The notes: generated by a model not told the origin, from the letters alone. 64,000 nucleotides of DNA from an uncultured Clostridia bacterium (GCA_937966555.1 CALCLY010000036.1:122116-186115), one strand, 5' to 3'. Positions 23,210-41,154 are shown, counted from the first letter of the stretch. Numbers and translations: made by a program.

Positions 23210-23237
23210 AATTCAACCTCCAATTCGAGTTATTATC

Positions 23238-24336: not shown

Positions 24337-24528
24337 TCACGATGTTGTTTTATTTTTTCTCATCAAGAAATCAACTACACTGATTTTTGTTATACAATAC
24401 TCTCGACCGACTTTTATACTTTCGATTTTGTTTTCACGAAGTAATTTATATCCTGTTTTTGTACTTATACCGCCGAGAACTTCGCACATATCTTTAATTT
24501 TCAGCACATCGGGATAATTTTTCATCAT
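24337..24528 (-). CDS. excisionase-family HTH DNA-binding protein
   Basis: 63 aa. LKIKDMCEVLGGISTKTGYKLLRENKIESIKVGREYCITKISVVDFL matches the excisionase/MerR-like HTH pattern. Confidence 0.6.
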   Translation of the reverse strand: MMKNYPDVLKIKDMCEVLGGISTKTGYKLLRENKIESIKVGREYCITKISVVDFLMRKNKTTS

Positions 24529-24796
24529 TGAAAGAAGGATGAAGTAGAAGCAAAAACTATCGTCTTGGCGTATCTGCCGCTTGGCTCGTCCATACCGGAA
24601 TGTATCTGTTGCCGTTATACTGCACCGCCGTTATCTTGCGTGCTTTCTTTGTAAAAAATTATATTGCGGTTTTGGGCATTGAAAACTTATTGATGATGTT
24701 GCTCGCAATGTTTTTCTCCGGCTGGTCGAGAGTGTCTATAATTTCAGTAAGCACTCTTTCTTCATCATAGGATAAATACCGGAAAACTCTGTTGTG

Positions 24797-25039
24797 TTAA
24801 GCCTCCATCAAGAATATTCCGCCGTTTACACCGCTTTTTACACGGATGGGAGCGTAACGACCTAAAAAGGTAATATCGTTATATACCGTGTTTTTATGTA
24901 CGGAATACCTTTTTGATAATTCGGACAAAGTAACTTTTTTTGAACTTATTATAAAAAACAGGATTTCTATCCGTCTTTCAAAGGTAGACAATTTACCTGT
25001 CACAGCCGTTACACCTCCTTCCAAAAAACATTCTAACAT
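24797..25039 (-). CDS. HTH (DeoR/YafY-like N-terminal) protein, possibly truncated
   Basis: 80 aa. RRIEILFFIISSKKVTLSELSKRYSVHKNTVYNDITFL. Confidence 0.4.
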   Translation of the reverse strand: MLECFLEGGVTAVTGKLSTFERRIEILFFIISSKKVTLSELSKRYSVHKNTVYNDITFLGRYAPIRVKSGVNGGIFLMEA

Positions 25040-25361
25040 TTAATGTCACAAGCTCATTGTAACTTTCAAAAAATAATTTCATAATTTCACCCTTTTGTGT
25101 AAATTTTGTTGAATTTGCACAAGAGAGAGGCGGAGCACGGCTGTGATACGGTGGCGGTTTTCTGTGATGTTTTCCCGAAGATTTGCGGTTATGTCCTTTA
25201 GGCTTATGCTTTTTGCGCTTTGCTCTGTGCTTCATAAAGTGTCCTCCGTGCCGCAGGGCATATCCGACAAAAAGCATAATTTTGTCCTATGCAGGGCAAT
25301 TTTTTGTTTATGCGGTAATCGCTTTCGCTTCCTTTGCTTTGTAATATCATATAAAAAGGCA

Positions 25362-25411
25362 CAAAAAAAGCCGCCCGGCAATAAAGGCGTTTTGCCTCTA
25401 TACCGGGCGGC
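25362..25411 (-). terminator. rho-independent terminator of the SLH surface-protein gene
   Basis: GCCGCCCGG (25370-25378) pairs with CCGGGCGGC (25403-25411). On the minus strand the hairpin is followed by T7 (plus-strand A-run 25363-25369). Confidence 0.65.
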
Positions 25412-25469: not shown

Positions 25470-28400
25470 TTATTTTAGGTTTTCCAGCACACGCATAAAT
25501 ACCGCGGCTGCCTGCGCTCTTGTCGTATTGGCCTTTGGTGCAAAGCTCCCATCCGTATTACCTGTCATAATGGACTTTTCCGCCGCCCATGTTACAGCGT
25601 CCTTCGCATAGTCTGAAATGTCGCTGTTGTCCATATAGGCTGTGCTGCCGCTTGTCGTTATATCATATCCCTTGAATGTTGCATAGCGATAGATCATTAC
25701 TACCATCTGCTCTCTGGTTATATTATCATTCGGAGCAAATTGATTTTCGGAAATTCCGAAGATTATACCGTTATTGCTTGCCCACGCAACAGCCTTTTCA
25801 TAATAGCTTCCGCTTTCTATGTCAATAAAGGCGGCTGCAGCTGTCTGCGGCTCATTTTCCATTCTGTAAAGAATTGTAACAAACATTGCCCTTGTAATAT
25901 CGCTTTGGGGTGCAAATTCCGTATTTGATACGCCTTTCATCAGACCGTTTTCGTATGCGTATTTCACCGAATCATAAAACCAGTCGTTTTTGTGAATGTC
26001 TGTAAACGGATTTTCCCATTCTGTCGGTTTTGGTGGGTCAACCGGATCAACAGGCTTTTCGTTTTCGTTCCACTTTGCATAAAGCGTAAAGTCCTTTGTA
26101 ACCTTGCTTGCAAAATCATATTTTGCAGTCAATTTTTCATCTGTGTACCAGCCGTCAAAGGTAAAACCTTCTTTTGCAGGAGCAGTCGGCTCTTTAACAA
26201 CACTATTTTTTGTTACGGAAGATGATGTAATTGCGTTTCCGCCGTTTGTTTCAAACTTAACTGTGTAGCGTGTTGTTCCGCCGCCGCCACCGCCGCCGCC
26301 ACCGCCGCCGGACGAATTAACAGTAAAGCGGATTGTCTTATCAATCGTGGTCAAATTGGTGGCTGTTACACGAACTGTTGCGGTGTAAGTGCCTGCGGCC
26401 AAGCCTGTGTTGGGCTTGATGGTGAAAGTTGTGGTGCCGGATGTTGCCAGATTCGTATTAAAACCCGTCTTATCCAGCGTGAAGCTGTCGGCATTGGCTC
26501 CGGTCAGGGTCACATCCAGAGAAGCAAGAGCACCGGTGCCGGTATTGGTGATCGTAAAGGTCTCTGCGGTCTGCTCGCCGTAGCCTACGGTCCGTGCAGC
26601 AAAAGTTTTACCGTCCGGTGTGACTGTTGCCGTATAAGTCAGGGGCACATCGTCTGCCGGGACGGTGACCGTAGTGGTTGCACCTGCAAAGTGTGTATCA
26701 GTTTCCGCTATGCGGACATAGTAGGTGCCTGCGGTAAGTCCGGTGATCTCGGTGCCGGAGCATACAGTACCTGCGGGGCTGGCAAAGTTAGAGTCGGTGC
26801 TGTACTCCATAGCTGTGGTTGTACCGGTTATCTTACCGTCGGAGCCGCCCAAAGTGGTGGGATTCACTCCGTTCAAACCGGTAGGAGCACCGGGACTGTC
26901 AGCCTTTTTAACCGCAGCGGTTGCGGCGCTGGTAAGTGTGCCGGTTTCCTCGCTGCTGGAAATCTCCACGGTGATGGTCGAGCCGATGTCGGCCTTAACC
27001 AGCGTGTAGGTGCTGTTCATTGCGCCGGAGATGTCGGAGCCATCACGCTTCCACTGATAGGACAGCGTGCCGGTATTATTGCCGCTTTCAAGAGATGCTG
27101 TCAGGGTCTGACCGAACTTAGCCGTACCGGTGATCGTGGCTGTGCCGGTCAGGGCGGGGTTCTCCGTCCAGCGCGCGTAATATTCGCTACTTGAATCTGT
27201 ATAAACTGTGTCCAGACTCAACAAAGTGCCGCCGCTTTCTGCTGTATACCACCCGGCAAAGATGTAGTGCTCTTTTGTCGGTGTCGGCACCTGTTCCGCG
27301 GTCAACTTGCCGTCCGTACCGGTAACAAGTTCCACACGATAACTTTCATCTCCGATTTTTCCGCCCTGCGTATAGAAGCCAACGATATATTTTGTAACGC
27401 CGCCGAGAGGACTCATAGAAAACGGAACGCCGTAAGAATATTTCACTTCGTCTATCGTATAGTTAGTATACACAACCCCCGGGTTATTGCCTCCCAAGGT
27501 GACATCTGTTTCATTCAGCTCTGCCAGTGCCAACCCGTCCTGTGCCTTGAAGTATATCCACAGAGTGTATTTAATCCCCGAAATGAACTGTGCAGAAAGC
27601 TTTGTTGCGTCAGAATAACTTCCGCCGGAGTCTGAGTATTGCCACTTATACGTGAATTCTACACCCGCCGTATTGCAGGTGACAACCGCATCCGCAACAT
27701 TTTCTCCCTCCGTATATCCGGTATAGGAAAATGAAACGCTGTCAATCGCTCCCCACAAGGCATATACCGTGGTTGCCTCGCTGAAAACCGTTGTCTCCGT
27801 TATCTTCATTCCTCCGCTTGCTGCGGTATACCATCCGTCGAAGGTGTAGCCCTCCCTTGTCGGAACCGGAAGTGATGCCAATTTACCTTTATCCGCCGCC
27901 GGTATCGTTATTGTATCCGTATCCTTGCCGTTTACCTTGCCGCCGTTTGCATCAAATGTTACATCAATGTCAACGGCGGGCACCCAGCGCGCGTAAAATT
28001 GGTTTCTTGGATCTGTATAAACTGTGTCCAGACTCAACAAAGTGCCGCCGCTTTCTGCTGTATACCACCCGGCAAAGATGTAGTGCTCTTTTGTCGGTGT
28101 CGGCACCTGTTCCGCGGTCAACTTGCCGTCCGTACCGGTAACAAGTTCCACACGATAACTTTCATCTCCGATTTTTCCGCCCTGCGTATAGAAGCCAACG
28201 ATATATTTTGTAACGCCGCCGAGAGGACTCATAGAAAACGGAACGCCGTAAGAATATTTCACTTCGTCTATCGTATAGTTAGTATACACAACCCCCGGGT
28301 TATTGCCTCCCAAGGTGACATCTGTTTCATTCAGCTCTGCCAGTGCCAACCCGTCCTGTGCCTTGAAGTATATCCACAGAGTGTATTTAATCCCCGAAAT

Positions 28401-28664
28401 GAACTGTGCAGAAAGCTTTGTTGCGTCAGAATAACTTCCGCCGGAGTCTGAGTATTGCCACTTATACGTGAATTCTACACCCGCCGTATTGCAGGTGACA
28501 ACCGCATCCGCAACATTTTCTCCCTCCGTATATCCGGTATAGGAAAATGAAACTGCTTCTATCTCTGTTCCCGCCGCACTCGCCGTCACGCCCATGGCGG
28601 GCACGAGGGAAAGCAGCATTGCCAGTGTCAGTAAAACAGAAAAAAATTGTCTTGTCTTTTTCAC
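25470..28664 (-). CDS. SLH-anchored surface protein with Listeria-Bacteroides (Flg_new) repeats
   Basis: Start revised to GTG 28664 (GGAGG 8 nt upstream), giving VKKTRQFFSVLLTLAMLLSLVPAMGVTASA as signal peptide. Repeats of the YxFxGWYT type occur several times. Three C-terminal SLH domains. An 11-Gly run is present. Confidence 0.8.
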   Translation of the reverse strand: MKKTRQFFSVLLTLAMLLSLVPAMGVTASAAGTEIEAVSFSYTGYTEGENVADAVVTCNTAGVEFTYKWQYSDSGGSYSDATKLSAQFISGIKYTLWIYFKAQDGLALAELNETDVTLGGNNPGVVYTNYTIDEVKYSYGVPFSMSPLGGVTKYIVGFYTQGGKIGDESYRVELVTGTDGKLTAEQVPTPTKEHYIFAGWYTAESGGTLLSLDTVYTDPRNQFYARWVPAVDIDVTFDANGGKVNGKDTDTITIPAADKGKLASLPVPTREGYTFDGWYTAASGGMKITETTVFSEATTVYALWGAIDSVSFSYTGYTEGENVADAVVTCNTAGVEFTYKWQYSDSGGSYSDATKLSAQFISGIKYTLWIYFKAQDGLALAELNETDVTLGGNNPGVVYTNYTIDEVKYSYGVPFSMSPLGGVTKYIVGFYTQGGKIGDESYRVELVTGTDGKLTAEQVPTPTKEHYIFAGWYTAESGGTLLSLDTVYTDSSSEYYARWTENPALTGTATITGTAKFGQTLTASLESGNNTGTLSYQWKRDGSDISGAMNSTYTLVKADIGSTITVEISSSEETGTLTSAATAAVKKADSPGAPTGLNGVNPTTLGGSDGKITGTTTAMEYSTDSNFASPAGTVCSGTEITGLTAGTYYVRIAETDTHFAGATTTVTVPADDVPLTYTATVTPDGKTFAARTVGYGEQTAETFTITNTGTGALASLDVTLTGANADSFTLDKTGFNTNLATSGTTTFTIKPNTGLAAGTYTATVRVTATNLTTIDKTIRFTVNSSGGGGGGGGGGGTTRYTVKFETNGGNAITSSSVTKNSVVKEPTAPAKEGFTFDGWYTDEKLTAKYDFASKVTKDFTLYAKWNENEKPVDPVDPPKPTEWENPFTDIHKNDWFYDSVKYAYENGLMKGVSNTEFAPQSDITRAMFVTILYRMENEPQTAAAAFIDIESGSYYEKAVAWASNNGIIFGISENQFAPNDNITREQMVVMIYRYATFKGYDITTSGSTAYMDNSDISDYAKDAVTWAAEKSIMTGNTDGSFAPKANTTRAQAAAVFMRVLENLK
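27195..28553. repeat. two identical 543-bp direct copies (27195-27737 and 28011-28553), 816 bp apart, inside one CDS
   Basis: I compared both copies base by base by eye and saw no mismatch. The period of 816 nt equals 272 codons, so the protein carries a duplicated 181-aa block. Confidence 0.8.
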
Positions 28665-28692
28665 ATTTATATCCTCCTTTTGATGTGATGTT

Positions 28693-29280
28693 CTACTTGC
28701 CTCCGATATTCCGGCTTGAAATTGCATTACCGCAATACTCGCATTTGCCGGAGCTTCCGGCGCGAATTCTTGTTGTTCCGCTGCATTTTTCACACACAAT
28801 GTTAACAAAGCTTGTTTTACTGCCTTCTCTGCCCGAAAGAATCACGCAGGGCATGCCCTGCTTTTGCAGAGTGCAGTCACAGAATACTCCTTTGCCGAAA
28901 AGCTTCTCAAGCTCGGAAAGTACCTTGAACGGCGGTTTCCCCGATTGCTTTGCAAGCTCGTCAATTGTCACCATGCCGTCAGCATCACACATAAAGATTG
29001 AGTTGTAGCGATATGCAAGACCTGCCCTTCTGCCGTTTTTAATCCCGTTTAACAAAAGCAATCCGGACGGAACAACCATGACTATATTGGTAATCAAGTT
29101 ATCGCGAAGCTCTTCGTTATACCCGGTAACCCCGGAAATAATTCCAAACAGAAAAACCGCCGTGAAGAATCCGCCTATAATCATTTGTATGTGCTTTTTT
29201 AATGTAAGCCTTGCAATTGCCACTTTTGAAATATATGTTCCGCCACCCGAAAAGATTGTTTGATTCGTCTTCATTTTCAC
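28693..29280 (-). CDS. membrane protein with C-terminal zinc ribbon
   Basis: 195 aa. Two predicted TM helices, then CEKCSG..CEYCGN. ATGA-type overlap with the upstream gene. Confidence 0.5.
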   Translation of the reverse strand: MKMKTNQTIFSGGGTYISKVAIARLTLKKHIQMIIGGFFTAVFLFGIISGVTGYNEELRDNLITNIVMVVPSGLLLLNGIKNGRRAGLAYRYNSIFMCDADGMVTIDELAKQSGKPPFKVLSELEKLFGKGVFCDCTLQKQGMPCVILSGREGSKTSFVNIVCEKCSGTTRIRAGSSGKCEYCGNAISSRNIGGK

Positions 29281-30125
29281 TGCCTCCGAAATGCCATCAT
29301 TCCCACTCCGATGATTGCAAGCAATATACCGGTTACTATGCCGAAAATCGAGCCGCCGCGCACTCCTTTTTTGTTCTCCCCGGCAAATTCTTCTGCTGTC
29401 ATAATTCCCTTAACGGTTGTAACCGAATCCACATCCTCGGCTTCTATCAGGGTATCGCCTTTTTGTACGCCGACAATCGTATATTCGAGCGGATCGTCGG
29501 GCGAAACGATGCCGTAGGATATTTTTTGAGATCCGTATCCCGTCGATGAGTACATACCTGTTGATTTTTTCGGCAGCCAATTTTCTTTTGAAACGCAGTA
29601 GCTGCTTTCTCTTCCGCCCGAAAGCACCTTCCAGCCCGCATTGAGGCTCTTCTCGTCATATTGCGTAAATTCGGTGTTTCTTATAAGCGGATTGAGCAGC
29701 TTGCTTTCCACCTTAAATTCTCCGAGTAGGGTAGGTGCGGCGAGCATGGTTGATGTAAGTATCTCGGCGTTTATTCCAAAATTCGCCTTTTCGCTGTAGT
29801 CTGTATTCTCCGGATACCAGTCCCACACTTTTTCATCACCGCTGCCGGTATCCTGTTTATAAGTCCAAACCGTTCTTTTCGCCGTTACTCCGGGAAGCTT
29901 AACGCCCGTTATGGGATCCTGAAGCTGTTCGGCAGGTTTAAGAGTTCCCGAAACAACCACAAGCTTTCCCTCGTTTTCGGGAGTAAGCTTGCCGTCTTTA
30001 ATCGTTGGCGCAGCTTTGATTTTCTCATAGGACTGCGGTGCTGACACAAGAGCTTTTATGGCAAGCGAAGCAAAGAGCAAGCCTCCTATAATCAGTATAA
30101 CGCCGATTATTTTTTTCATAGTCAT
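29277..30125 (-). CDS. membrane protein with N- and C-terminal TM anchors (TMEM43/DUF1625-like?)
   Basis: 282 aa. N-terminal TM IIGVILIIGGLLFASLAI and C-terminal TM IFGIVTGILLAIIGVGMMAF. The family guess is weak. Confidence 0.45.
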   Translation of the reverse strand: MTMKKIIGVILIIGGLLFASLAIKALVSAPQSYEKIKAAPTIKDGKLTPENEGKLVVVSGTLKPAEQLQDPITGVKLPGVTAKRTVWTYKQDTGSGDEKVWDWYPENTDYSEKANFGINAEILTSTMLAAPTLLGEFKVESKLLNPLIRNTEFTQYDEKSLNAGWKVLSGGRESSYCVSKENWLPKKSTGMYSSTGYGSQKISYGIVSPDDPLEYTIVGVQKGDTLIEAEDVDSVTTVKGIMTAEEFAGENKKGVRGGSIFGIVTGILLAIIGVGMMAFRRQ

Positions 30126-30140
30126 TCCTCCGTTCTGTAG

Positions 30141-31313
30141 CTATTCAAGCTTATTCGCCTGATTTTTATATTCGTCCTGTATAAATTTCGCGTCCTTGTC
30201 GCTAAGTGCGTTTATAACCGTGCCGAGTGCGTCAAACTGCGCTCTTGTGCAGTGCACCGCAACAGGTTTGCAGGCATATCCGCGCGTCATACGTCCTAAA
30301 TTTTCGTTTTTTACAAGTCCGAGCATAACTTCATAAAGCTCATCCGTATTGAAATAGGTTGCTTTTGCCTTCCATGCGTCATAGTTCTCCTCGGATTTGT
30401 TGATAAAGCTTGTTACGGCTGCCCATGCGGGAACTTTGTCGCTGCCCGGTGTGGTTTTAAAGTAGTCCATCGTGGCTCTGTATGCCGCCTCGCTTGTGTT
30501 TTCGTGTGACGGATAATCATACCACAGCCAAACAAGACCTTTTACACCGCTTGAATGAAGGTCTGCGTCAGCCTCGTTTTTCAGCATTTCCGAGATAGGC
30601 GCAACCACCCTGTCATCACCGAGGAGACCGGCATACTCATACGCTGCCTTCCGAACATCGTTATCCGAATCTTTCATCAGCTCGATTTCCGCATCAACCG
30701 CTCCGTTAAGAGTCTTGTTCCATGTGCTTCCGAGAGCAACCGCCGCCTGCCTTCTTACAACTGCGTTTTCATTCTTTGCCGCATCAAGCAGGAATTTGCC
30801 GATTTCTGCATCCTTGCCGCCTTCATTTCCAAGAGCTTTTACCGCACATTTAATAACATAAGGCTCTTTTTCGGTTTTCAGAATCTCCTTTGCCGACGCT
30901 TTATGCGAATCACTTACCCCGAAAAATGTGGCGATGTTTGAAAAAGCATAGCCTCTTACCTGCGGTGCATCGCTTTTTAAAAGAGGCTCAACAAATTCCT
31001 TTGCCGCAGGGAGTGTTGCCTTGTTATCCTTAAGCTTTTTGATTGCTTTGTCTGTTATATTTTCATCAAGCTCAAGCTTATTGTTGATTGTTGCATATGA
31101 ATATGTGGAAGCAAGATTTACAAATTCGTCCAAGGTTATATTCTGCTCATCTTTAATAAACTCTTTTATCAGATCGTCCTCTGTCATATTTGCGTAGTCA
31201 ATCTTTTTGGTTTCCTGCTTTGTTTCGGTTTCTTTTCCGGTATTTTCACCGCCGCACGCAGCGAGCGAAAATACCATTCCTACAGCTAAAATGAACGCTA
31301 ATATTTTTTTCAT
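30141..31313 (-). CDS. HEAT-repeat lipoprotein
   Basis: Lipobox FSLAAC. Repeated DAPQVRGYA, NAVVRRQAAVALG and DNDVRKAAYEYAG motifs. Confidence 0.55.
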   Translation of the reverse strand: MKKILAFILAVGMVFSLAACGGENTGKETETKQETKKIDYANMTEDDLIKEFIKDEQNITLDEFVNLASTYSYATINNKLELDENITDKAIKKLKDNKATLPAAKEFVEPLLKSDAPQVRGYAFSNIATFFGVSDSHKASAKEILKTEKEPYVIKCAVKALGNEGGKDAEIGKFLLDAAKNENAVVRRQAAVALGSTWNKTLNGAVDAEIELMKDSDNDVRKAAYEYAGLLGDDRVVAPISEMLKNEADADLHSSGVKGLVWLWYDYPSHENTSEAAYRATMDYFKTTPGSDKVPAWAAVTSFINKSEENYDAWKAKATYFNTDELYEVMLGLVKNENLGRMTRGYACKPVAVHCTRAQFDALGTVINALSDKDAKFIQDEYKNQANKLE

Positions 31314-31337
31314 AATATAAAATTCCTCCTGATTCTT

Positions 31338-32663
31338 TTATTGTTTATCATTATCGTCAAATATGTCGCCGCATTCAGGGCAGAATTTCGGCGGATTTTT
31401 GGGATCTTCAGGCTCCCAGCCGCATTTATCGCATTTATAGGTCGGTGCGCCCGCAGGTTTCGGATTCCCACAGTTTTGGCAGAACCTACCCTTGTTGACC
31501 GTTCCGCACGAACACGTCCAGCCGTCGGGCGATGCCTGCGGTTTTCCGCAATTCATACAGAATTTCCCGGTATTGCCCGTCTGACCGCATTCACAGCTCC
31601 AGCCTGCCGCTTGAGGCTGCTGTGCCTGCTGCTGAGACTGCTGTTGCTGCTGACCCATCGCAAAAAGATTGCCCGCATTCATACCGCCTGCATTCTGCGC
31701 CATACTCATTCCGAAAAAGCCGCCCATTGCGCCCATTCCGCCTTCGTTTGCCGCTGCCGTTCTCATAGCGTCTGTCTGCCCGCCGACTATGCGCGCCGCC
31801 GCAATATTCGGATTGGTTGTCATAACGTTTTCTTCCCATTCGGTAATCTTTTTTCTCTGGTCATCCGGGATAGATACACCGTTAATGCTTACGGCAAAGA
31901 GCTCGATTCCGCGCTTTTCCTTCCACTCAACTTTAAGCTCCTCGGAAAGAGCCTTTGTAACCTCTTTTGTATGTGCAGGAATTTCCGAATACATTATTTT
32001 CATTGCCGAAATCTGCGCAAATGCCGGTCTCAGAGCGTCCAAAAGCTCACTCTTTAACATTTCGTCAATTTCCGAACGGCTGTATACATATTCCACATTA
32101 CCGCTTACGTTTGTATAAAACATAACAGGGTCGGCTATTTTATAGGAATACACACCGTTACACCTTAAATCCACCGACAGCTTATAGTTCATCGATTCAT
32201 CTATAGTCACCCTGAATGGCACGGGAGAGGAGGTGCCGAATTTATTGCCGGTAATTTCCTTTGTGTTGAAATAATAAACCCTCTGATCCTTGCCCGGTTC
32301 GCCGCCGAAAGTAAAACGCTTGCCTACCTGCTGAAAGCTTTGTTTAATGCTTTCGCCTAAGTTGCCGCAAAAAATGCTCGGCTCGGTTGAATTATCATAA
32401 ACAAACTCACCCGCCTCGGCGCAAAATTCAACAATTTTGCCCGATTCCACGATAATCATGCTCTGTCCTTCGTTTACCGAAATGATAGAACCGTTTGAAA
32501 TAATGTTGTCGTCTCCCTTTTTGTTGGAGCTTCTTTTTCCCACTCGTTTTTCACCTTTTGCCACAAGTGTGTCGGCATCTAAACTTTCGCAGTAGAAAAA
32601 TTCTCTCCACTGGTCAGCCAAAACACCGCCAAGAGCGCCTGCGCCCGCTTTTAAAAGTCCCAT
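31338..32663 (-). CDS. SPFH-domain protein with C-terminal zinc ribbons (YdjI/COG4260-like)
   Basis: MGLLKAGAGALGGVLADQWREFFYC... N-terminus is typical of the YdjI / virion-core-protein-like family. A Gln-rich linker precedes three CxxC..CxxC ribbons. Confidence 0.8.
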   Translation of the reverse strand: MGLLKAGAGALGGVLADQWREFFYCESLDADTLVAKGEKRVGKRSSNKKGDDNIISNGSIISVNEGQSMIIVESGKIVEFCAEAGEFVYDNSTEPSIFCGNLGESIKQSFQQVGKRFTFGGEPGKDQRVYYFNTKEITGNKFGTSSPVPFRVTIDESMNYKLSVDLRCNGVYSYKIADPVMFYTNVSGNVEYVYSRSEIDEMLKSELLDALRPAFAQISAMKIMYSEIPAHTKEVTKALSEELKVEWKEKRGIELFAVSINGVSIPDDQRKKITEWEENVMTTNPNIAAARIVGGQTDAMRTAAANEGGMGAMGGFFGMSMAQNAGGMNAGNLFAMGQQQQQSQQQAQQPQAAGWSCECGQTGNTGKFCMNCGKPQASPDGWTCSCGTVNKGRFCQNCGNPKPAGAPTYKCDKCGWEPEDPKNPPKFCPECGDIFDDNDKQ

Positions 32664-32687
32664 AATTCTGTTCTCCTCTCAAAATTT

Positions 32688-33218
32688 TTATTCTTTATAG
32701 TCTGTTATATCCCATATATCGGGTGTACATATCAGCCTGCCGTTTTCATCCGTATCAAGCGTGATTTTGTGTCCGCCGCGTATGACGATATAAATTTCAA
32801 CATTGCCGCCGCAGTTTATTATATACGGTGTGCCGTCATCTGCTTTTTGCAAATTTTTCTTATCGCCGTTTTGAATCAGCTCGTTTTCCTCTCCGTACCG
32901 CGGAATAACAAGATACCATTTTTCTCCGCCGTAATCATAATGACTGATTGCCCGGCGTTTTTCCTCGGAAAGCTCCGAAAAAAGCTTTTCTATATATTCA
33001 TTTGCCGTATTTTTGCCGGTTTCTCCCTCTCCGAGATATGCGACCGCCCAATAGGGATAGTCCTCGATTTCATCGAACGGAAGAGTATTTGCGTATTCTG
33101 TACGATGCTCACTGTCAACATACACCATGCCCGGTCCGTCCAGTATAAAAGGGTTTTCTCCGGGAGCCCTGCATCCGAAAAGACCGGCAATAACCGTAAA
33201 TATCGCAATTGCTTTCAT
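32688..33218 (-). CDS. lipoprotein, unknown function
   Basis: MKAIAIFTVIAGLFGC lipobox. Start taken at ATG 33218; the track uses GTG 33236. Confidence 0.5.
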   Translation of the reverse strand: MKAIAIFTVIAGLFGCRAPGENPFILDGPGMVYVDSEHRTEYANTLPFDEIEDYPYWAVAYLGEGETGKNTANEYIEKLFSELSEEKRRAISHYDYGGEKWYLVIPRYGEENELIQNGDKKNLQKADDGTPYIINCGGNVEIYIVIRGGHKITLDTDENGRLICTPDIWDITDYKE

Positions 33219-33232
33219 CAGCCTTACCTTAA

Positions 33233-34426
33233 TCACCCTTTCGGCAATTCAATTCGCATATCGTAGCAAAGAATTCTCGAAATAAGAGCCGCCGCTTCAC
33301 TGCGTTTTACCTGTGAATCCGGATAGAACGCCATGTATTCATTGCTTCCCACTGCGATCCCTTTATTATAAAGATCCAAAATTTCATATGCGAAGGGCGT
33401 TGTGTCATAAACGTCCGGAATATCGGTTATCGGAACATCGTTTATAAAATACGGATTGACGTCGCACCGTGAAAACAGATATGCCATCTGTGCACGCGTT
33501 GCGTTTTTCTCCCAATCGAAGATAATATGATCTTCAAGTATTGCTTTGTCATAGCAATAATCCACATAAACATCATACCAGTTTTCACCGGTCATTTGGA
33601 ATTCAACTTCCTCTCCTTCGTATTGGCTTTTCTTGTGAATTACCGCGGCAATTTTGGCTGCCTCCGCGCAGGTAAGCCCTGCATTCGGGTCAAATTCTCT
33701 TTTGTTTTTCCCGTTTAAGATGCCAAAGCTGTACGCCGTCTGCACATAAGAATAGTACCATGCGTCCGGCGATATGTCCGCAAACGGCAGAGAGGTATTC
33801 TCCAGATATTTGCTTCCTTTAAAACCACAGTCCTCGCAGTATATCATGTTTTCACCGAAAATACCCTTTTCCGTCATACTCTCAACAAGCGCAGTATGCA
33901 TAAGTGAAAAACTAAAATTCCCGTCACCCTTTGCATCGGATATTTTTTCGTACATCACATGCTCATCTGCCGTGCACGGGATATAAAATTGTATAAATCC
34001 GGTTCCGGCAAACACATCAAAATCAAACGTTATTTCCTCTGAATTCAATGTAACCTCATTAAGATTTGCGCAGTTGGCAAAAGCGCGCTCACCAATATTT
34101 TTCACACTTGACGGAATATATGCACTTTCGGCATTGCAGCCTTCAAATGCATTTGTGTTTATCAATTCAATTCCTTCAGCAACGGATATGGCTTCAAGTC
34201 CTAAGTCAAAACAAGCCATAACACCGATTTCATTGATTTTTGTTCCGTCTATTTCTGCCGGGAAAAAGGCAAATTCATCACCGTAATAAGCGGTAATTAC
34301 TCCATCCTTTGTGTATTCATACATACCGTCTGCCGATTTGAATGTTTCCCATTCCGCACTGACAACAGTGCTGCTTAAGATCAGCAGTGCTGCAAGCAAT
34401 AACGATAGTTTTTTCACGTTTTGCAC
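33233..34426 (-). CDS. secreted leucine-rich-repeat (BspA-like) protein with SLH-like C-terminal domains
   Basis: Signal peptide present. LRR-like IELINTNAFEGCNAESAYIPSSVKNIGERAFANCANL. SLH-like FADISPDAWYYSYVQTAYSFGILNG and a C-terminal repeat. Confidence 0.6.
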   Translation of the reverse strand: MQNVKKLSLLLAALLILSSTVVSAEWETFKSADGMYEYTKDGVITAYYGDEFAFFPAEIDGTKINEIGVMACFDLGLEAISVAEGIELINTNAFEGCNAESAYIPSSVKNIGERAFANCANLNEVTLNSEEITFDFDVFAGTGFIQFYIPCTADEHVMYEKISDAKGDGNFSFSLMHTALVESMTEKGIFGENMIYCEDCGFKGSKYLENTSLPFADISPDAWYYSYVQTAYSFGILNGKNKREFDPNAGLTCAEAAKIAAVIHKKSQYEGEEVEFQMTGENWYDVYVDYCYDKAILEDHIIFDWEKNATRAQMAYLFSRCDVNPYFINDVPITDIPDVYDTTPFAYEILDLYNKGIAVGSNEYMAFYPDSQVKRSEAAALISRILCYDMRIELPKG

Positions 34427-34432
34427 CTCCCG

Positions 34433-35302
34433 CTACTTTATTTTGGCTTCCGCATCGTCCGCGCGTCTTGTGTAAACCGCCATGCCGCCGGTCGCTGCGT
34501 CATTCATAGCATTTATGCCTTCCTTCAGTTTTTCTTTGTCTGCCTCCGTTATGGCTTCCTCACCTTTTGTTGCAGCCTTAAAAGCCGTTCCGAATGCCGC
34601 CGCCATTCCAATCGCTGCCGCATCCTCTCTTTTTTCCGCCTTGCTTCTGCCGAAGCCGAATAACCCTCTTTCGTCATCGTGAACGCCGAAAATATAGTCA
34701 AAATGCTGCTTTGCATTGTGCGCATATTGTACGTCTGAACGATTGTTCTTGCTGAAGCAGATTTTAAGCTCCTGCTTAATATAAGGGTGAGGACGCAGTC
34801 CTTTTTTGTTATCCGTATTCACCCTGCTCATATTTCCGCCCAACAGTTTGATTTTCAAGCCGCAGCCCTTAAACTCGGGCTGTTTGCCCGGCTCGGTTGC
34901 GGGTGTTTCATCTACATATTCCTCATAGCTTGCCACCTGATCGTAGCGGAAAAGCTCTTTCATCTTGCCTCTGCTCGTGTCGCTTCTGTATACAATTCTG
35001 AACATTCCCAGCTCGTCGCAAAATTCAATGCCCATATCATTAAGCGTGGACGGATATGTGCTTTTTTTGCCCTCCTTTGAGTAAACCTCTTCAAACAGTC
35101 TGTTCTGGCGCTTCATGTACTCAATGTGTCCCTTGATTTCGTCAAGCGTAAGCTCGCTTAAACGAATGTATTTTGAACACAGGTTTCCGCATTCGCTGCA
35201 GATAAATTCCTTGTTCTTGATTTTCGAGCGGTGCATCACGCCACACTCTTTGCCGCATAGTGCGCAGGTTTTTTTACCGAAAATATTTTTAAAGAATCCC
35301 AT
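34433..35302 (-). CDS. zinc-ribbon protein (DUF4428-like N-terminus)
   Basis: 289 aa. N-terminus CALCGKEC..FICSECGNLC. Confidence 0.5.
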   Translation of the reverse strand: MGFFKNIFGKKTCALCGKECGVMHRSKIKNKEFICSECGNLCSKYIRLSELTLDEIKGHIEYMKRQNRLFEEVYSKEGKKSTYPSTLNDMGIEFCDELGMFRIVYRSDTSRGKMKELFRYDQVASYEEYVDETPATEPGKQPEFKGCGLKIKLLGGNMSRVNTDNKKGLRPHPYIKQELKICFSKNNRSDVQYAHNAKQHFDYIFGVHDDERGLFGFGRSKAEKREDAAAIGMAAAFGTAFKAATKGEEAITEADKEKLKEGINAMNDAATGGMAVYTRRADDAEAKIK

Positions 35303-35320
35303 TTTTCAACCTCCAATGAT

Positions 35321-36100
35321 TTAATAGCTTCCGCCCCTGCCGCCGTGGGTTTCGCCCGACGACGATGTGTGGGTTCCGGAATTGTTTTTTTGTTTTTCCG
35401 TTTTTGTGACCGTACTGTAAAGAAATATATCCCTTGAATCATGCATATTCATGCTTCCGGGCTTCATGTAATCGGACGCATAATCCTGTTTTACGGCTGT
35501 TTTCATTTTTTCCAGCTGCTTTTTCGTCATGTAATACGCCAGAAGCAGCGGAAGGAGCAGCGCTCCGCCGATTACGCAAAGAAGGTAGCCTAAGGTATAC
35601 TGTTTTTCGTTAAAGATATTGCCGCTGCTTGCCATGCCCAGAAGCTTTTCCGATTGTTCGAAAAACGCCTCTGCCGCGGCATCGAAGTTATCCTCCTTGA
35701 GAAAGGGCAAAACTTGTTTTTCCATATACGCCAAGCCGTTTTTATTAAAATATTTGATACCCTTGCCGTGTGTTGAGAAATGATACGCTCTCGGCATTTC
35801 GGAAATGTAAAGAATAATACCGTCTTTTTCCGCGCCGCAGCCGTAGCCGCCGTAGTCGAAAATATCGTCTGCGCGGCTTTCCGCATCATCGCCCGACATG
35901 TATTCCTCCGTGTATATCGCTACGTCAAAATTGTATTTGCTTCTTATTGCGTCGGCTTTTTTCGAGAGCTTGTCAAATTCGCTTTCCGACAAAAGCTCCG
36001 CCTCGTCCGTAATCGACGGATTTGCAAAATCCGCAAGGGCTCCGAAAGCCGACGTAAGCAAAAGAATAGCCGCCAAAAACGATAAAAGTATTTTTTTCAT
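35321..36100 (-). CDS. TPM-domain membrane protein (YdjH-like)
   Basis: Start set at ATG 36100 (GGAGG 8 nt upstream). Signal peptide, then TPM pattern ITDEAELLS...DVAIYT...DGIILYIS. C-terminal TM and Gly-rich tail. Confidence 0.75.
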   Translation of the reverse strand: MKKILLSFLAAILLLTSAFGALADFANPSITDEAELLSESEFDKLSKKADAIRSKYNFDVAIYTEEYMSGDDAESRADDIFDYGGYGCGAEKDGIILYISEMPRAYHFSTHGKGIKYFNKNGLAYMEKQVLPFLKEDNFDAAAEAFFEQSEKLLGMASSGNIFNEKQYTLGYLLCVIGGALLLPLLLAYYMTKKQLEKMKTAVKQDYASDYMKPGSMNMHDSRDIFLYSTVTKTEKQKNNSGTHTSSSGETHGGRGGSY

Positions 36101-36113
36101 GCCTGCCGCCTCC

Positions 36114-37193
36114 TCAGTGTAACAGGAAATATGCAATTACCGCCGCAGCAACGTACGCGATGCCTGCAATTTTCGCAAAATATATGTTTTTCTTCTTTTT
36201 GTCAACGGGGTATTCTCCCACCACCTTGCCCGTCTGCCCGTTTATGGCGAATTTGTACATTGTATTCATGTACTTGATGTTGAGCATCCACACCGGAAGC
36301 AGCGAATATCTGATTTTACCGCCTGAAAAGCTTATTCTCGTGCTTTCGGGAATTACCGCCGCATAGCCGCCCGTGGTTTCACGAAATACCGAAACCGTCG
36401 ATGCCTTGACGCGCTCGTTTGCTCTTTCTATGCTATCCTCCGCCGTAACGTCGTATTTGTCCGCCAGATATCCCGAAAGATACGCTCCGTTAAAAACGAC
36501 GGCGTCCTCGTAATTGAAGGGCTCGACAGCCTCCATATATGCGTTGTCCGCCTTTTTCGAGCCGTCAACGGGGATATTGGCAAAGCCGACGCTGCCGCTT
36601 CTGAAAAGTCTGTAATAATCGGTTTTTGTATAATTGTAGCTCGAATCGCTCCAGCTTGTAACCCTCTGCGCGCTGTATGTAATCGCCGCGTTGCAGTCGC
36701 AGTCAAACATCCAGAACGGTACGTAAACACCTGCCATTTCTTCTATTTTCTTTTTTACCTTAAATTCGTCCGGCAGAAACGGCGCATTTTTAAAATCATC
36801 TTCAAACGCCGCCGTTGCCGCTTTTTTATCCTTTTTGAACGGAATGATGTAATCGGGGCGGAGCGTTCCCTCAAACTGTCCCTTGATTACCGCGGCGTCG
36901 CCGCAATAAGGGCATACGGTAGAGCCCATGGTGTCATCGCCCGTTATTTCAGCGCCGCATGAAGGGCAGGTGTAGCTTGCAAGATCAATTTCTCCGTCCG
37001 CTTCATAATTTCTCGGCTCGTAGCTCTCCCAGTCATATTTTGATTCACCCTGCATTTCGGCGTTCGCATCGTCGATTTGCCGCATAGCGTCAAGCTCAAA
37101 ATTGTTTCCGCAGGAATCGCAGTGCAGCGATTCGTTTTTGAAAACCAGCGCAGCTCCGCAGCAGGGACATTTATAGCTTTGTACAGTTTCCAT
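36114..37193 (-). CDS. multi-zinc-ribbon protein with C-terminal TM anchor (YdjG-like)
   Basis: CPCCGAAL..CDSCGN and CPSCGAEI..CPYCGD ribbons. C-terminal TM IAGIAYVAAAVIAYFLL. Confidence 0.55.
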   Translation of the reverse strand: METVQSYKCPCCGAALVFKNESLHCDSCGNNFELDAMRQIDDANAEMQGESKYDWESYEPRNYEADGEIDLASYTCPSCGAEITGDDTMGSTVCPYCGDAAVIKGQFEGTLRPDYIIPFKKDKKAATAAFEDDFKNAPFLPDEFKVKKKIEEMAGVYVPFWMFDCDCNAAITYSAQRVTSWSDSSYNYTKTDYYRLFRSGSVGFANIPVDGSKKADNAYMEAVEPFNYEDAVVFNGAYLSGYLADKYDVTAEDSIERANERVKASTVSVFRETTGGYAAVIPESTRISFSGGKIRYSLLPVWMLNIKYMNTMYKFAINGQTGKVVGEYPVDKKKKNIYFAKIAGIAYVAAAVIAYFLLH

Positions 37194-37214
37194 TGTTTCC
37201 CTCCTTTTTGCCCG

Positions 37215-37251
37215 GCCGCTCCCCGTGTCCGTTTTCGGGCAGGGGAGCGGC
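37215..37251 (-). other. intercistronic GC-rich hairpin
   Basis: GCCGCTCCCC (37215-37224) pairs with GGGGAGCGGC (37242-37251), perfect 10 bp. No U-tract follows. It lies between the 129-aa gene and the ydjG-like gene. Confidence 0.6.
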
Positions 37252-37263
37252 TGACACTTTTGC

Positions 37264-37653
37264 CTATGCCTTGTTTTTTGCCGCTCCGATTATGTATAAA
37301 ATCGGAACAATCAAACCCGAGGCATAACTCATGATATTGAATTTGCTGCCGACTACGTTTGACATAACGTTTCCGGCTACGCTGAGCAGAGCCACAATAA
37401 CGCCCATAACAAGGCACGCCTGTGCCTTTTCCGGCTTCTCGCAGTTTTTCACGCCCATAATCCCCGCTATCAGCTGGAACACGGCGCCGGCGAGAATAAG
37501 AACACTTGCAAGCGTCAGAGTACCCGTGCTTGTGTCAAGCAGCGCCGCCATTGTTGCCACACTGACAAGAGCGACAATACCTCCGATGATACCGAACGCG
37601 CTGCCGATAATCATCAGAATTCCCGTGACCTTCAAAAATTGCTTTCCTTTCAT
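37264..37653 (-). CDS. small 4-TM membrane protein
   Basis: 129 aa, hydrophobic throughout, with no recognized family. Confidence 0.5.
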   Translation of the reverse strand: MKGKQFLKVTGILMIIGSAFGIIGGIVALVSVATMAALLDTSTGTLTLASVLILAGAVFQLIAGIMGVKNCEKPEKAQACLVMGVIVALLSVAGNVMSNVVGSKFNIMSYASGLIVPILYIIGAAKNKA

Positions 37654-37712
37654 ACCGAACCTCCTTTAAAAAATATTTATATCTGTTTTTTCAAAAAGAT
37701 ATGACAAACGTG

Positions 37713-40700
37713 TTATTCCACCGTTACGACATCGCAGAGCGGCTGCATACCTTGGCTTTCGTGTCCCCAGAGCATAAGCTTGTAAACGTATCCGTCGCCG
37801 GGAGTGCCTTTTAAATAGTAATCCTCCCGATTAACATATTTTATAAGGTAATTTACAAGATTTCCGTTTGCGTCATACTTGGCGCTGTGAAGCCTTGCGC
37901 TGCTGTCAGGTGCAAAGCCGATTACGGTGTTAAGCTCTTTGTTGTAGCTGATAAAGGCTGCGTCCTCCGGCGCAATCAGCGCATACCATGCGTTCGGCAC
38001 ATCGCCGGGGTCTGACATGACATACGACAAATCGCTGCTGTTTTTTGCTCCTACGACTTTCATGGGAGAATATTCGCTTTGCGTAAACATCTGCGTAAAT
38101 GCCTTAAAGCTTGTGCCGTTGTAATTTCCCCAATAAATTTCCGTTATGCCGTAAGCAAGCATCGTTTTGCCGTCAAACGCGGTTTTGCAGTCCCTCACGC
38201 TCAGCTTTTCGGCAAGATTTTCGATTTTCGTGGCTTTTATGCCCTTGTCATACGTCAGCTTGCCCGCACCATTGATTGTGAGTGTTCCGCTGCCGTAAAA
38301 AGAAACCTTGCCTCCGCACAGAATACCCACGGCATCTATAGTGTCCGCTTCGATGATACTGTTTCCCATAAGCTCTATGTCAAGGTCGCCGTTTGCATAA
38401 ATTCCGACAGATTCCGCCGTGGCGTAAATCGGATGCGTATCAATATGCGCATTGTTCAGCGTCAGCTTTGCGGGAGACATTGATGTTTCCGGAGTAAAGC
38501 TTACCGCTCCTCCAAACAGCGCCTCGGCATTGTCCTGCGTGATGCTTTCGCCACCCACCGTTATTATAGGTTCGGCAAATACCGCATAAAGCGAAAGCCC
38601 CATAGGTACGAAAACCTCATCTCCCGGCAGATAATCCACCGTTTTGCCGTTTCTGTCGACAGTCCAGCCCAAAAAGCTGTATCCGTTTTTTATCGGACGA
38701 ACATTGGGCAGAATTACTTTATTATACATTTTCATCCGTATGGTTTTATACGGCTGGCTGCCGGCTTCTCTTTTATCGAACAGGAAGAGAACCGTGCTGC
38801 TCTGCATATCGCTTTTTGTAAACGAATTGACAGCAGACGGCTGATATCCGCACTTGGCGCAGGTTTTGCGATACAGCCCGTCTACGGTGTCGGTTGCTTC
38901 TCTTAAAAGCTCATATTTGTAGATGTGTTCTTCGTCCTTCTTGTACGTCACGGTATTTCCGCTCTCATCCTCGTAGCTGCAGCGGCTGCATATAAGGCTG
39001 TGGTTTGTACCGTCCTTCGGGGTGCACGAATCAAATATATGCCTTACAGAGTGACTGACAAGGTTGCCGTTTACCCCTTTTGTAACTTCTTCGCCGTTTA
39101 CCTTTACAACGCATCTGTATGTTTCGCTTTCCGGCATCCTGTTTGTTATGACAAATCCCGGCGTCTCATAGCCGACAAACATGCCGACGCCTACCCCATA
39201 ATCAACAAGCTGTTTTATGCTGATAAACGCCGAATCCTGTTTAAGCTGCCAGTCATATGTAACCGTTGCCCCCTCGGGCGCGCACACCTTGATGTGGAAT
39301 GCGGCGCTCCTGTCACACTCCGTAACAACCTTGTCTGTAAGGTTTTCGATAAAGGGCGCGGTTTCCGTTCTCCCGATATGCACCGGAAGATATTTGCTCT
39401 CGTCGCCCGACGTCACCGTCAGCGTAAAGCTTTTTTCCTCCGTTGCCGCGGACGGGTAAACGCCGGTGATATAACGATTGCCTGTGATTGAAAGCCCGTA
39501 AGCTGCAAATTCCGCATCGCCCGTCACCGTATAGCTGTCGGCACAGCTTATATAATTTTTCAAATCAACATTGATGGAAGATCCCGAAACACCTGCCGGA
39601 ATTTCGACGGGCTTCAGGTTATATACTTTAAACTCCGAAGCTTCCGCGCAAGTATATTCACGTCCGATGTATATGTCCCTTGAAGGCTTGGAAAGATGAT
39701 TCTCAACGGAGACATCGTTTATATACAGCTTTGTTTCCGCCGTAAACCAGGCGTCACCCGTGGCTTTTTCATAGGCGCCGTATTCGTATACGGTATTTTC
39801 GGTATATTCCTCCAATAAGCTGTATTCGGCTTCTCCCGCAAACAGCGCGTTTTGTGCCTCATTGTCCGAAATAATATTCCCGTCATCGTCTTCATAACTC
39901 TGCATTACGGTATACTCCGATGTTCCGAGAGGATAAAAAACGGGTTTTCTGCCCGGCATCGGCTCGATATTGTAAAGCCGCAGCTCTTTTATTATCGGCT
40001 TCCATTGCGCGTAGATTGTCGTATCCTTATTATATACCCTGCCGAGGTCAACCCGTTCGCCGCCTTCGGGCTCGGTATACCAACCCTCAAGATAAAACCC
40101 TTCTCTGTTGATAACGGTGTGGTCATAATGTAAACTCATAATCGTTCCGTCAATCCCCGTCTGCATCTCAAGCGTTGCGGCGCCGGCAGCGCCCACAAAG
40201 CTGCCGCCGTTTGTGTCAAGCGTTATCGTGTTTGGCTTCGGACTTTTGATTGTGTATTCGAACGTAACGCTCGGTTTGTTCACTCCCACGGTGCTTTTTC
40301 TTATCGCTCTCGGCGGCGCGCCGTCCGTCAGCAGTATCTGAGTATTCCGACTCATGCCGAAGCCTTCCTCAAAATCAAACGTCACCGTCAGCGTGCAGCG
40401 GGTTGTGTTTTTAAAACTCGTTGCATTGACATAGCTTTTTTTAATGGGGTCATATACCTTCCATTTAATCCCCCATATGCTGTAAGGTCTGCCGGCAGAC
40501 ACCTTTACCGCCTGCGTCAGCTCCTCTACCGAGCTGTTTGGCCCGGGCTGCTGCACGCCCATAAGCTCAAGCGAATCCAAATAATTCTTCCTAACTCCTT
40601 CGGTGCACAGATTTTTTGTTTTTATATACAGATACCCGGCATAATAGTCTATGTTTTCTTGCGGCACAGGCTCATCGTCAATATAAAACGCGGTACTGCT

Positions 40701-41033
40701 GTTTACCACATAATTTCCGTTTTTGATGATCACTTTAAAACGGTAATAATACTCTGTGCCGCTGTCAAACGGGTCATAATTTGAACTCAGCTTTGCATCG
40801 TCGCAAGCCCTGTACCACTTTCCCTCATCAATCTTTAATATCTCGTCGGAACCGGGACAGGTTAATTTAACAGGCGCTGCTTTGACGCCTTTCTTAATGC
40901 TTACCTCGCTCATCCCCTCAAACCTCACTTCGGGTATAACGGTTTGAGCCGCAAGCGTTGTCTGCGGCAAAACGCCCAAAAGCACTGCCGCGCAAAGAAC
41001 AGCCGAAAAAAGCCTGCCCTTTTTTATTTTCAT
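37713..41033 (-). CDS. large secreted protein with Flg_new repeats and H..C-x2-C modules
   Basis: Start revised to ATG 41033, giving MKIKKGRLFSAVLCAAVLLGVLPQTTLA as signal peptide. FYLEGWYTEPEGG and YSFLGWTVDRNG repeats. CSRCSY...DGLYRKTCAKCGY module. Confidence 0.65.
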   Translation of the reverse strand: MKIKKGRLFSAVLCAAVLLGVLPQTTLAAQTVIPEVRFEGMSEVSIKKGVKAAPVKLTCPGSDEILKIDEGKWYRACDDAKLSSNYDPFDSGTEYYYRFKVIIKNGNYVVNSSTAFYIDDEPVPQENIDYYAGYLYIKTKNLCTEGVRKNYLDSLELMGVQQPGPNSSVEELTQAVKVSAGRPYSIWGIKWKVYDPIKKSYVNATSFKNTTRCTLTVTFDFEEGFGMSRNTQILLTDGAPPRAIRKSTVGVNKPSVTFEYTIKSPKPNTITLDTNGGSFVGAAGAATLEMQTGIDGTIMSLHYDHTVINREGFYLEGWYTEPEGGERVDLGRVYNKDTTIYAQWKPIIKELRLYNIEPMPGRKPVFYPLGTSEYTVMQSYEDDDGNIISDNEAQNALFAGEAEYSLLEEYTENTVYEYGAYEKATGDAWFTAETKLYINDVSVENHLSKPSRDIYIGREYTCAEASEFKVYNLKPVEIPAGVSGSSINVDLKNYISCADSYTVTGDAEFAAYGLSITGNRYITGVYPSAATEEKSFTLTVTSGDESKYLPVHIGRTETAPFIENLTDKVVTECDRSAAFHIKVCAPEGATVTYDWQLKQDSAFISIKQLVDYGVGVGMFVGYETPGFVITNRMPESETYRCVVKVNGEEVTKGVNGNLVSHSVRHIFDSCTPKDGTNHSLICSRCSYEDESGNTVTYKKDEEHIYKYELLREATDTVDGLYRKTCAKCGYQPSAVNSFTKSDMQSSTVLFLFDKREAGSQPYKTIRMKMYNKVILPNVRPIKNGYSFLGWTVDRNGKTVDYLPGDEVFVPMGLSLYAVFAEPIITVGGESITQDNAEALFGGAVSFTPETSMSPAKLTLNNAHIDTHPIYATAESVGIYANGDLDIELMGNSIIEADTIDAVGILCGGKVSFYGSGTLTINGAGKLTYDKGIKATKIENLAEKLSVRDCKTAFDGKTMLAYGITEIYWGNYNGTSFKAFTQMFTQSEYSPMKVVGAKNSSDLSYVMSDPGDVPNAWYALIAPEDAAFISYNKELNTVIGFAPDSSARLHSAKYDANGNLVNYLIKYVNREDYYLKGTPGDGYVYKLMLWGHESQGMQPLCDVVTVE

Positions 41034-41154
41034 ACAATTCAGCTCCTTTTTTCTTTCGGCGCGCGGCAGCTGCCGCGCTCCTACTGCTTTTTTTATGATT
41101 GTTTCTCCGTCGGCCGGGCCGCAAAATGCCGTAAGCCCGACTTGCATATTGGTT

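Follow-up and report, generated by a model that had tools for sequence, protein, structure and literature searches.

Within a 64-kb stretch of DNA from an uncultured Clostridia bacterium (the window; GCA_937966555.1 CALCLY010000036.1:122116-186115), ten co-directional open reading frames (ORFs) on the minus strand fill positions 28693-37653. We numbered these genes g1 to g10 along that strand, and related loci in other genomes carry L-numbers. The run is probably a lineage-specific, enlarged YdjG/YdjH/YdjI membrane module that works without an adjacent PspA and whose products form a complex spanning membrane and wall. At its core lies a triad of genes for a YdjG-like (g2), a YdjH-like (g3) and a YdjI-like protein (g7), and four of the additional genes (g4, g5, g6 and g9) recur beside such scaffold genes in distant, rearranged clusters.

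The gene run is compact. From g1 to g10 the junctions measure 70 (g1-g2), 13, 18, 6, -4, 24, 24, 15 and -4 nucleotides (nt), so that apart from the first no gap exceeds 24 nt, and a GGAGG-type ribosome-binding site precedes each of the ten genes. ORF coordinates and junction lengths thus bear out the preliminary description of ten co-directional genes spaced by at most 70 nt. The two overlaps it had reported, of 4 nt each, exist as well (g5/g6 and g9/g10), but they read GTGA rather than ATGA under the longest-ORF starts, and the second depends on the start chosen: placing the start of g10 at Met3, as the gene callers do, removes it. The gene-by-gene domain description was upheld by Pfam searches, hydropathy and motif scans, and the TPM, SPFH and zinc (Zn) ribbon assignments gained support from Pfam together with CxxC motifs. 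Zn ribbons are present in four of the ten proteins, as had been proposed, with two further Zn-ribbon genes lying just upstream of the run. In NCBIfam, none of the ten proteins matched an informative family.

In Bacillus subtilis, YdjI reaches the membrane only with the help of the membrane proteins YdjG and YdjH, and recruitment of PspA in turn depends on YdjI (Scholz et al. 2021, PMC8581546). According to Ravi et al. (2024, PMC11237479), YdjG combines a pair of Zn ribbons with a YpeB-related domain and a transmembrane (TM) segment, YdjH has a TPM domain and a low-complexity tail, and in the SPFH partner a band-7 domain is followed by a Zn ribbon at the C-terminus. The published architectures further include an alpha/beta (YpeB/NTF2-like) fold for the YdjG domain, a TM segment in YdjH and, in the soluble YdjI (Band_7_1, COG4260), a low-complexity linker. 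The assignment of g2, g3 and g7 to this triad proved sound, as their architectures match all three published types. The YdjG-like g2 (36114-37193, minus strand) has two N-terminal Zn ribbons (four CxxC motifs), an alpha/beta domain with long beta-hairpins and one C-terminal TM segment; hydropathy predicts a tail-anchored protein with its bulk in the cytoplasm, and the AlphaFold2 model reached a predicted local distance difference test score (pLDDT) of 90.7. Its N-terminus METVQSYKCPCCG, including SYKCPCCG, resembles the B. subtilis YdjG start MIISYKCPNC deduced from a primer in PMC8581546, and its family comprises 6318 representative clusters at E<=1e-3. The YdjH-like g3 (35321-36100, minus strand) is composed of a signal or anchor segment, an extracytoplasmic TPM domain (Pfam, 8e-21), one TM segment and a cytoplasmic tail ending in GGRGGSY, a Gly-rich end that resembles the primer-deduced end of B. 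subtilis YdjH (...SRGSF). The YdjI-like g7 (31338-32663, minus strand) is a soluble SPFH protein without TM segment, in which a Band_7_1 domain (1.4e-17) is joined by a Gly/Met/Gln-rich linker to three C-terminal Zn ribbons with invariant cysteines. PDB sequence searches returned no relatives for the SPFH profile of g7 or for the TPM protein g3.

Between sister species, the TPM domain of g3 retains only ~50% identity (compared with L009, L018, L020, L021, L023 and L053). The tail of g3 is conserved, and the genes neighbouring g3 reach 75-93% identity in those same species, which suggests allelic replacement or diversifying selection at the TPM domain. An SPFH protein identical to g7 was found on human-gut metagenome contigs, and the species-level relatives are metagenome-assembled genomes (MAGs) from the guts of humans and ruminants, assigned to uncultured Clostridia, Oscillospiraceae or 'Ruminococcus'.

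We wondered how far the triad is linked to pspA. The window and 6-10 kb around the anchor gene in ~175 related loci were searched as six-frame ORFs with a hidden Markov model (HMM) derived from the sequences of E. coli PspA and Synechocystis Vipp1, and by phmmer with each of the two proteins. The E. coli query was checked against PDB 4WHE, and cyanobacterial and plant Vipp1 served as control and were recovered at 1e-30 to 1e-10. No pspA was detected in the window or the first 86 loci (best E=0.88 by HMM and phmmer) or in the later loci (best E=4.7). The term 'PspA-less' from the preliminary description therefore stands as far as a local pspA is concerned, but it denotes no special loss: this is the usual state in Clostridia and is also seen in Enterococcus, and a triad without local pspA is the rule wherever the SPFH family of g7 was sampled. 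As G/H/I is widespread without PspA, the primary role of the triad is probably not PspA recruitment. A sigmaW-type promoter (TGAAAC-N16-CGTA) was not found near the cluster, and the sole match in the window (57118-57142) lies at a great distance from it and is at chance frequency. An envelope-stress function for the cluster would be an extrapolation from B. subtilis.

Compared with the B. subtilis pspA-ydjGHI operon (PMC8581546, PMC11237479), the cluster thus shows the same three architectures in adjacent, co-directional genes. It differs in that neither cluster nor window contains pspA, so that it is not a PspA operon in the sense of an operon with a pspA gene inside it, and in the missing sigmaW-type promoter. 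Moreover, the H-like gene is separated from the I-like gene by three others, the SPFH protein carries three ribbons, and extra partners are present, namely a DUF4428-PH protein, a TMEM43-family protein, an LRR-SLH protein, lipoproteins including one with HEAT repeats, a 4-TM protein and a 2-TM protein with a Zn ribbon.

Conservation of gene neighbourhoods was analysed in 91 labelled loci by tblastn, ORF clustering and iterated HMMs. Eighty of these loci came from an SPFH-anchored scan with one genome per species, six were contigs encoding the exact protein, and five were anchored on g4. A YdjG-like gene stands beside the SPFH gene in 56 of the 91 loci, usually together with a TPM gene, and the order is G-H-I or I-G-H; in the window, three genes separate H and I. 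Even a g2 homolog at 33% identity still lies within a G-H-I triad, and in Enterococcus gallinarum genes for an SPFH protein, a hypothetical protein and a TPM protein adjoin dnaX-recR.

Four of the inserted or appended genes deserve particular attention. The protein g4 (34433-35302, minus strand) is cytoplasmic and adaptor-like, with a DUF4428 match (1.1e-6; 28.8 bits at a cut-off of 27.8), a PH-like beta-sandwich and a C-terminal three-helix bundle. Its AlphaFold2 model (pLDDT 85.9, predicted template modelling score 0.82) displays a Zn ribbon with a helix, the beta-sandwich with its C-terminal helix (residues 81-204) and the bundle (residues 221-286). Next to it are encoded g5 (33233-34426, minus strand), a secreted and predicted wall-anchored LRR-SLH protein (LRR_5 1.7e-14, SLH 2.3e-13), and g6 (32688-33236, minus strand), a small lipoprotein of no assigned family with a conserved lipobox-like LFGC after the signal peptide. 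The TMEM43-family protein g9 (29277-30125, minus strand) has two anchors, an N-terminal and a C-terminal TM segment, around a large central domain. Its own match to Pfam TMEM43 (PF07787) is borderline (3.5e-5, 23.7 bits at a cut-off of 23.3) and only some close homologs are flagged, but it aligns with 34% identity over 117 residues to a clear family member, L148:7878-8723 (TMEM43 6.8e-18, 65.4 bits), which itself sits within an SPFH, YdjG-like and DUF4428 cluster.

The homologs of these four genes recur near the scaffold genes in many arrangements. We found 624 g4 homologs, and the loci anchored on g4 at 52-57% identity contain Band_7_1, YdjG-like, TPM and DUF6935 genes, SLH or LRR proteins and lipoproteins in differing orders. 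L087, L088 and L091 (60% GC in L087) encode lipoproteins, I, DUF4428, a lipoprotein, G, H, a 143-residue 2-TM protein, DUF6935 and g6-like lipoproteins, whereas L089 and L090 (39% GC) read double-Zn-ribbon protein (DZR) similar to the upstream gene U3 described below, DZR, G, H, two SLH proteins, DUF4428, lipoproteins, DUF3298, g6-like, I, a 151-residue protein and DUF6935. In L040 a small Zn-ribbon gene is followed by G, H, I, LRR-SLH, DUF4428, lipoproteins and a g6-like gene, and in L063 and L082 DUF4428 stands between I and G. Full-length g5 homologs lie beside or inside triads in L027, L032, L033, L035, L040 and L041, among them between H and I in L027, L032 and L033 and after I-G-H in L035 and L041. 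Iterated HMMs identified g6 homologs in L039, L040, L063 and L087-L091.

For g9, the homolog search gave only relatives of at least 90% identity, and distant ones were reached by a metagenome scan with alignment. This g9-anchored scan yielded ~30 loci at 28% GC, in which the complete loci encode an SPFH protein of 389 residues, a YdjG-like protein of 488 residues, a DUF5640 lipoprotein, a DUF4428 protein of 288 residues, a TMEM43 protein of 281 residues (6.8e-18) and a surface protein of 1530 residues. In this variant (L143-L175, e.g. L148:3917-5086), a SHOCT domain takes the place of the Zn ribbons at the end of the SPFH protein, so that the C-terminal module is exchangeable. A further partner, DUF6935, is encoded by a gene for 162 residues between g7 and g8 (~11377-11865) in the sister strains L001, L003, L004 and L006, whose SPFH protein is identical; the window lacks this gene at ~31314-31337. 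DUF6935 genes also lie near SPFH homologs in many arrangements (L028, L044, L063, L065, L082, L086-L089 and L091).

These data identify g4, g5, g6 and g9 as recurrent companions in independently rearranged clusters of lineages with 28-60% GC. U3, its neighbour U3b and DUF6935 are recurrent companions, too. The idea of a ten-gene module is thereby sustained for g4, g5, g6 and g9 and falls short for g1, g8 and g10. The complete ten-gene form occurs only where the SPFH protein is ~90% identical or more, and iterated HMMs and the metagenome scan detected homologs of the latter three only in window-like clusters of a narrow clade. They encode a small 4-TM membrane protein of 129 residues with four hydrophobic segments and no significant Pfam match (g1, 37264-37653), a HEAT-repeat lipoprotein (g8, 30141-31313; HEAT_2 1.1e-15, lipobox LAAC) and a 2-TM protein that has a domain in the cytoplasm and a CxxC...CxxC Zn ribbon at its C-terminus (g10, 28693-29280), all on the minus strand. 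The possibility that neighbourhood analysis would find only ydjGHI-like genes co-occurring, raised in the preliminary description, was not borne out, as not all of the additional genes are random neighbours.

The narrow distribution of g1, g8 and g10 is what one would expect if only G, H and I were functional and the other seven were unrelated envelope genes in the same operon-like run, which is rich in surface-protein genes. We regard this as improbable. Triads elsewhere are mostly plain, surface-protein and lipoprotein genes are plentiful in these genomes and the downstream flank is variable, all of which would suit chance neighbours. Chance does not, however, predict that g4, g5, g6 and g9, together with DUF6935 in relatives, recur after extensive rearrangement from 28 to 60% GC.

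In five MAGs, an expanded cluster is accompanied by a second triad locus (pairs L013/L022, L014/L027, L020/L043, L009/L034 and L017/L048). The second locus is a plain G-H-I in CAKSQL, CAKSOE and CAUGRT, a G-H-LRR-SLH-I in CAJKHT and a G-I without labelled TPM in CAKSCV. Because the same genomes keep this second locus, the expanded cluster is probably a specialised paralog next to a retained plain triad.

Taking homology, gene context and predicted folds together, we infer the following function for the enlarged module. As in B. subtilis, the tail-anchored g2 and the TPM protein g3 would recruit the soluble g7 to the cytoplasmic face of the membrane, where it would oligomerise into an SPFH scaffold. 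In place of PspA, g4 would be the recurrent cytoplasmic client or adaptor of this scaffold, as its gene context and predicted fold suggest. Outer links to the wall or surface layer could be provided by the TPM domain, g9, the lipoproteins g6 and g8 and the SLH-anchored g5, and the whole complex would organise or monitor the envelope, with g1, g8 and g10 as putative clade-specific additions. According to predicted topology, g2, g4, g7, U3, U3b and the g10 ribbon are cytoplasmic, and the TPM domain, g5, g6, g8 and the central domain of g9 lie outside.

Several points weigh against an enlarged YdjGHI-type complex of this kind. Gene linkage alone is what suggests complex formation, and it is by synteny among close relatives alone that g1, g8 and g10 count as members. 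The likeness to B. subtilis is one of architectures and primer-derived termini, not of whole sequences compared. The absence of pspA holds for the window and the loci searched, and a copy could be present elsewhere in the genome. The 28%-GC variant lacks a TPM gene, so that the triad is not invariant; TMEM43-like genes also stand alone (L130, L131, L134 and L137), and SPFH homologs without G or H exist (e.g. L072 and L075-L079). Linkage between scaffold and partners is thus frequent but not obligate.

The unit itself probably begins further upstream than g1. U3 (45400-45873, minus strand; likely start near 45783) encodes a double-Zn-ribbon cytoplasmic protein (Pfam DZR 1.3e-5) and U3b (45132-45350, minus strand) a protein of 72 residues with four CxxC motifs, the stop of which overlaps the start of the next gene. 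A U3 homolog (1.5e-35) stands at the head of the rearranged cluster in L089/L090 and further ones occur in L009, L014, L020 and L021; U3b homologs are found in L009, L014, L020, L021, L023, L089 and L090. As the double-Zn-ribbon genes at 45132-45873 recur heading L089/L090, U3 is probably an upstream member of the unit. Between U3b and g1 (37713-45135, minus strand) lie genes for two giant surface proteins, the secreted Cys-rich U2 (1326 residues) and U1 (1144 residues, Flg_new repeat). U2 (41155-45135) has ~60 CxxC/CxxCxxC motifs within its first ~530 residues and no Pfam match; a multihaem cytochrome was ruled out, as the motifs are CxxCxxC repeats and not CxxCH. Across L009, L017, L018, L020, L021 and L023, U1/U2 are present, absent or replaced, and they are possibly cargo or partners.

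The giant genes raise the alternative, to which we give little credence, that the module is specialised as a platform on which giant surface proteins encoded alongside are assembled or anchored, rather than being a general stress system. Giant secreted proteins are indeed encoded in or near clusters of four lineages, a suggestive recurrence, namely in the window (U1, U2 and D1), in L089 and L090 (SLH proteins of 784, 543 and 802 residues), in L087 (LRR, >850 residues) and in L148 (1530 residues), and SLH and LRR partners recur. Against a platform of this kind, the giant genes belong to differing families and are present or absent among sister species, plain triads mostly lack them, and they are so common in these genomes that the adjacency may be chance.

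The TMEM43-type and DUF4428 partners and the scaffold itself invite comparison with systems described elsewhere. Classical SPFH-NfeD operons (HflK/C, QmcA-YbbJ, FloT-YuaF/NfeD2, archaeal stomatin-NfeD) likewise encode an SPFH scaffold beside one or more membrane partners, and an oligomeric membrane microdomain is the behaviour expected of both. In contrast to these, g7 has no membrane anchor of its own and belongs to the Band_7_1 subfamily with no solved relative by sequence, and its partners are YdjG-like and TPM proteins; Pfam revealed no NfeD or OB-fold match among the ten proteins and no NfeD in the flanking genes. With the accessory systems of the phage shock protein (PSP) network (PspC/Toastrack/LiaIF; Ravi et al. 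2024, PMC11237479) the cluster shares the character of an envelope module that can occur without PspA, but the window cluster lacks Toastrack, PspC, LiaI/F and two-component genes. In L056 and L069 (L069:442-1398), a protein with TM segment and Toastrack domain (DUF4097, 1.3e-29) and a small multi-TM protein are encoded directly upstream of an SPFH homolog lacking G and H partners. Toastrack is known as a domain of the PSP network, and this adjacency independently links the SPFH subfamily with the envelope network of PSP type. In L095 (Monoglobus pectinilyticus NZ_OY725743.1, 6951-9203), the gene immediately upstream of the SPFH homolog encodes a 'TIM44-like domain-containing protein', which may be an alternative partner replacing YdjG.

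Bacterial homologs of TMEM43 have been noted before (PMC3198171). Like eukaryotic TMEM43/LUMA, a protein of the inner nuclear membrane, g9 and its homologs match Pfam TMEM43 and have a large domain between TM segments, but g9 has two instead of four TM segments, stands in a bacterial context and gives the borderline match described above. Homologs of the membrane nuclease SNIPE without TM segments carry PH or DUF4428 domains where others have TM segments (bioRxiv 10.1101/2025.11.03.685801), which fits a membrane-peripheral targeting role for g4. Both would use a DUF4428 and/or PH-like module at the membrane periphery; unlike the SNIPE homologs, g4 has no nuclease domain and a helical bundle in its place.

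A role of the cluster in membrane-based anti-phage defence or abortive infection is very unlikely: a type I restriction-modification system, a DUF234 ATPase and mobile-element remnants adjoin in a flank that varies between strains, DUF4428 and PH domains occur in homologs of the SNIPE defence nuclease and sister species differ unusually strongly in the exposed TPM domain, but PADLOC returned only generic HEAT-repeat matches (g8) and one weak Zn-ribbon match, Pfam and NCBIfam revealed no nuclease, protease, NTPase or toxin-like domain among the ten proteins, homologous clusters lie amid housekeeping genes (ribosomal proteins in L040, dnaX-recR in Enterococcus), and the variable flank starts only beyond g10. 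Phage and plasmid collections gave no sign of a mobile-element origin, with SPFH homologs only in a few unannotated 'phage' fragments and chromosomal-like 'plasmids'.

The g1-g2 spacer contains a GC-rich RNA hairpin (37215-37251, minus strand; -33.9 kcal/mol, z -3.6) without U tract, and hairpins of differing sequence occupy the same position in L018, L020 and L053; the element may act in processing, stabilisation or attenuation. The promoter and terminator scan found terminator-like sites only at chance frequency and none in an intergenic gap, a result that neither proves nor disproves a single operon. An Rfam scan of the window returned three tRNAs and nothing else. The GC content is 0.45-0.52 over positions 26000-46000, comprising the cluster and the surface-protein genes, compared to ~0.37-0.42 in the flanks.

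The downstream edge of the conserved block lies after g10, and the context beyond it differs between strains. The gene right after g10, for a surface protein with Flg_new and SLH domains (25470-28664, minus strand), occurs in only some of the strains; it contains two internal copies (27168-27467 and 27984-28283) that are 98% identical and 816 nt apart. Further downstream, the region 14018-25400 looks like a defence or mobile-element island. It comprises a tRNA (14018-14106), the type I restriction-modification genes hsdR (15050-18082), hsdS (18086-20026) and hsdM (20023-21795), a gene for a DUF234/ATPase_2-Mrr protein (21821-23209) and, at 23300-25100, small HTH genes. The left end of the window encodes a MobA/VirD2-type relaxase (3672-5048) as well as a large serine recombinase (6124-7860), a pair that points to the integration of a mobilisable element.

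The triad described here is of the known YdjGHI kind. For the enlarged partner set the searchable literature offers no description: we found nothing on DUF6935, DUF4428 is mentioned only incidentally in the papers listed, and no paper turned up on the gene context of bacterial TMEM43 homologs. To our knowledge, a single B. subtilis study accounts for what is known of YdjI-type SPFH proteins, which it presents as a membrane link for PspA, and we know of no bacterial TMEM43 member with a known function. The recurrent partners without described function (DUF4428-PH, TMEM43, DUF6935, SLH/LRR and small double-Zn-ribbon proteins) provide testable interaction hypotheses, and they place TMEM43, a human cardiomyopathy gene family with unexplained bacterial homologs, in a bacterial setting. 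The hosts are abundant uncultured Oscillospirales-like Clostridia of the human gut, whose envelope biology is little known. Tentatively, we consider that a hitherto undescribed membrane-wall machine independent of PspA exists in Clostridia and perhaps in Bacillota at large. In it, a YdjI-type scaffold recruited by YdjG/YdjH-like proteins would dock a DUF4428-PH adaptor on the inside and, by way of a TMEM43 homolog together with lipoproteins and SLH/LRR proteins, would couple the state of the membrane to the wall or S-layer. Such a machine, if it exists, would provide bacterial TMEM43/LUMA homologs, DUF4428 and DUF6935 with their first functional context.

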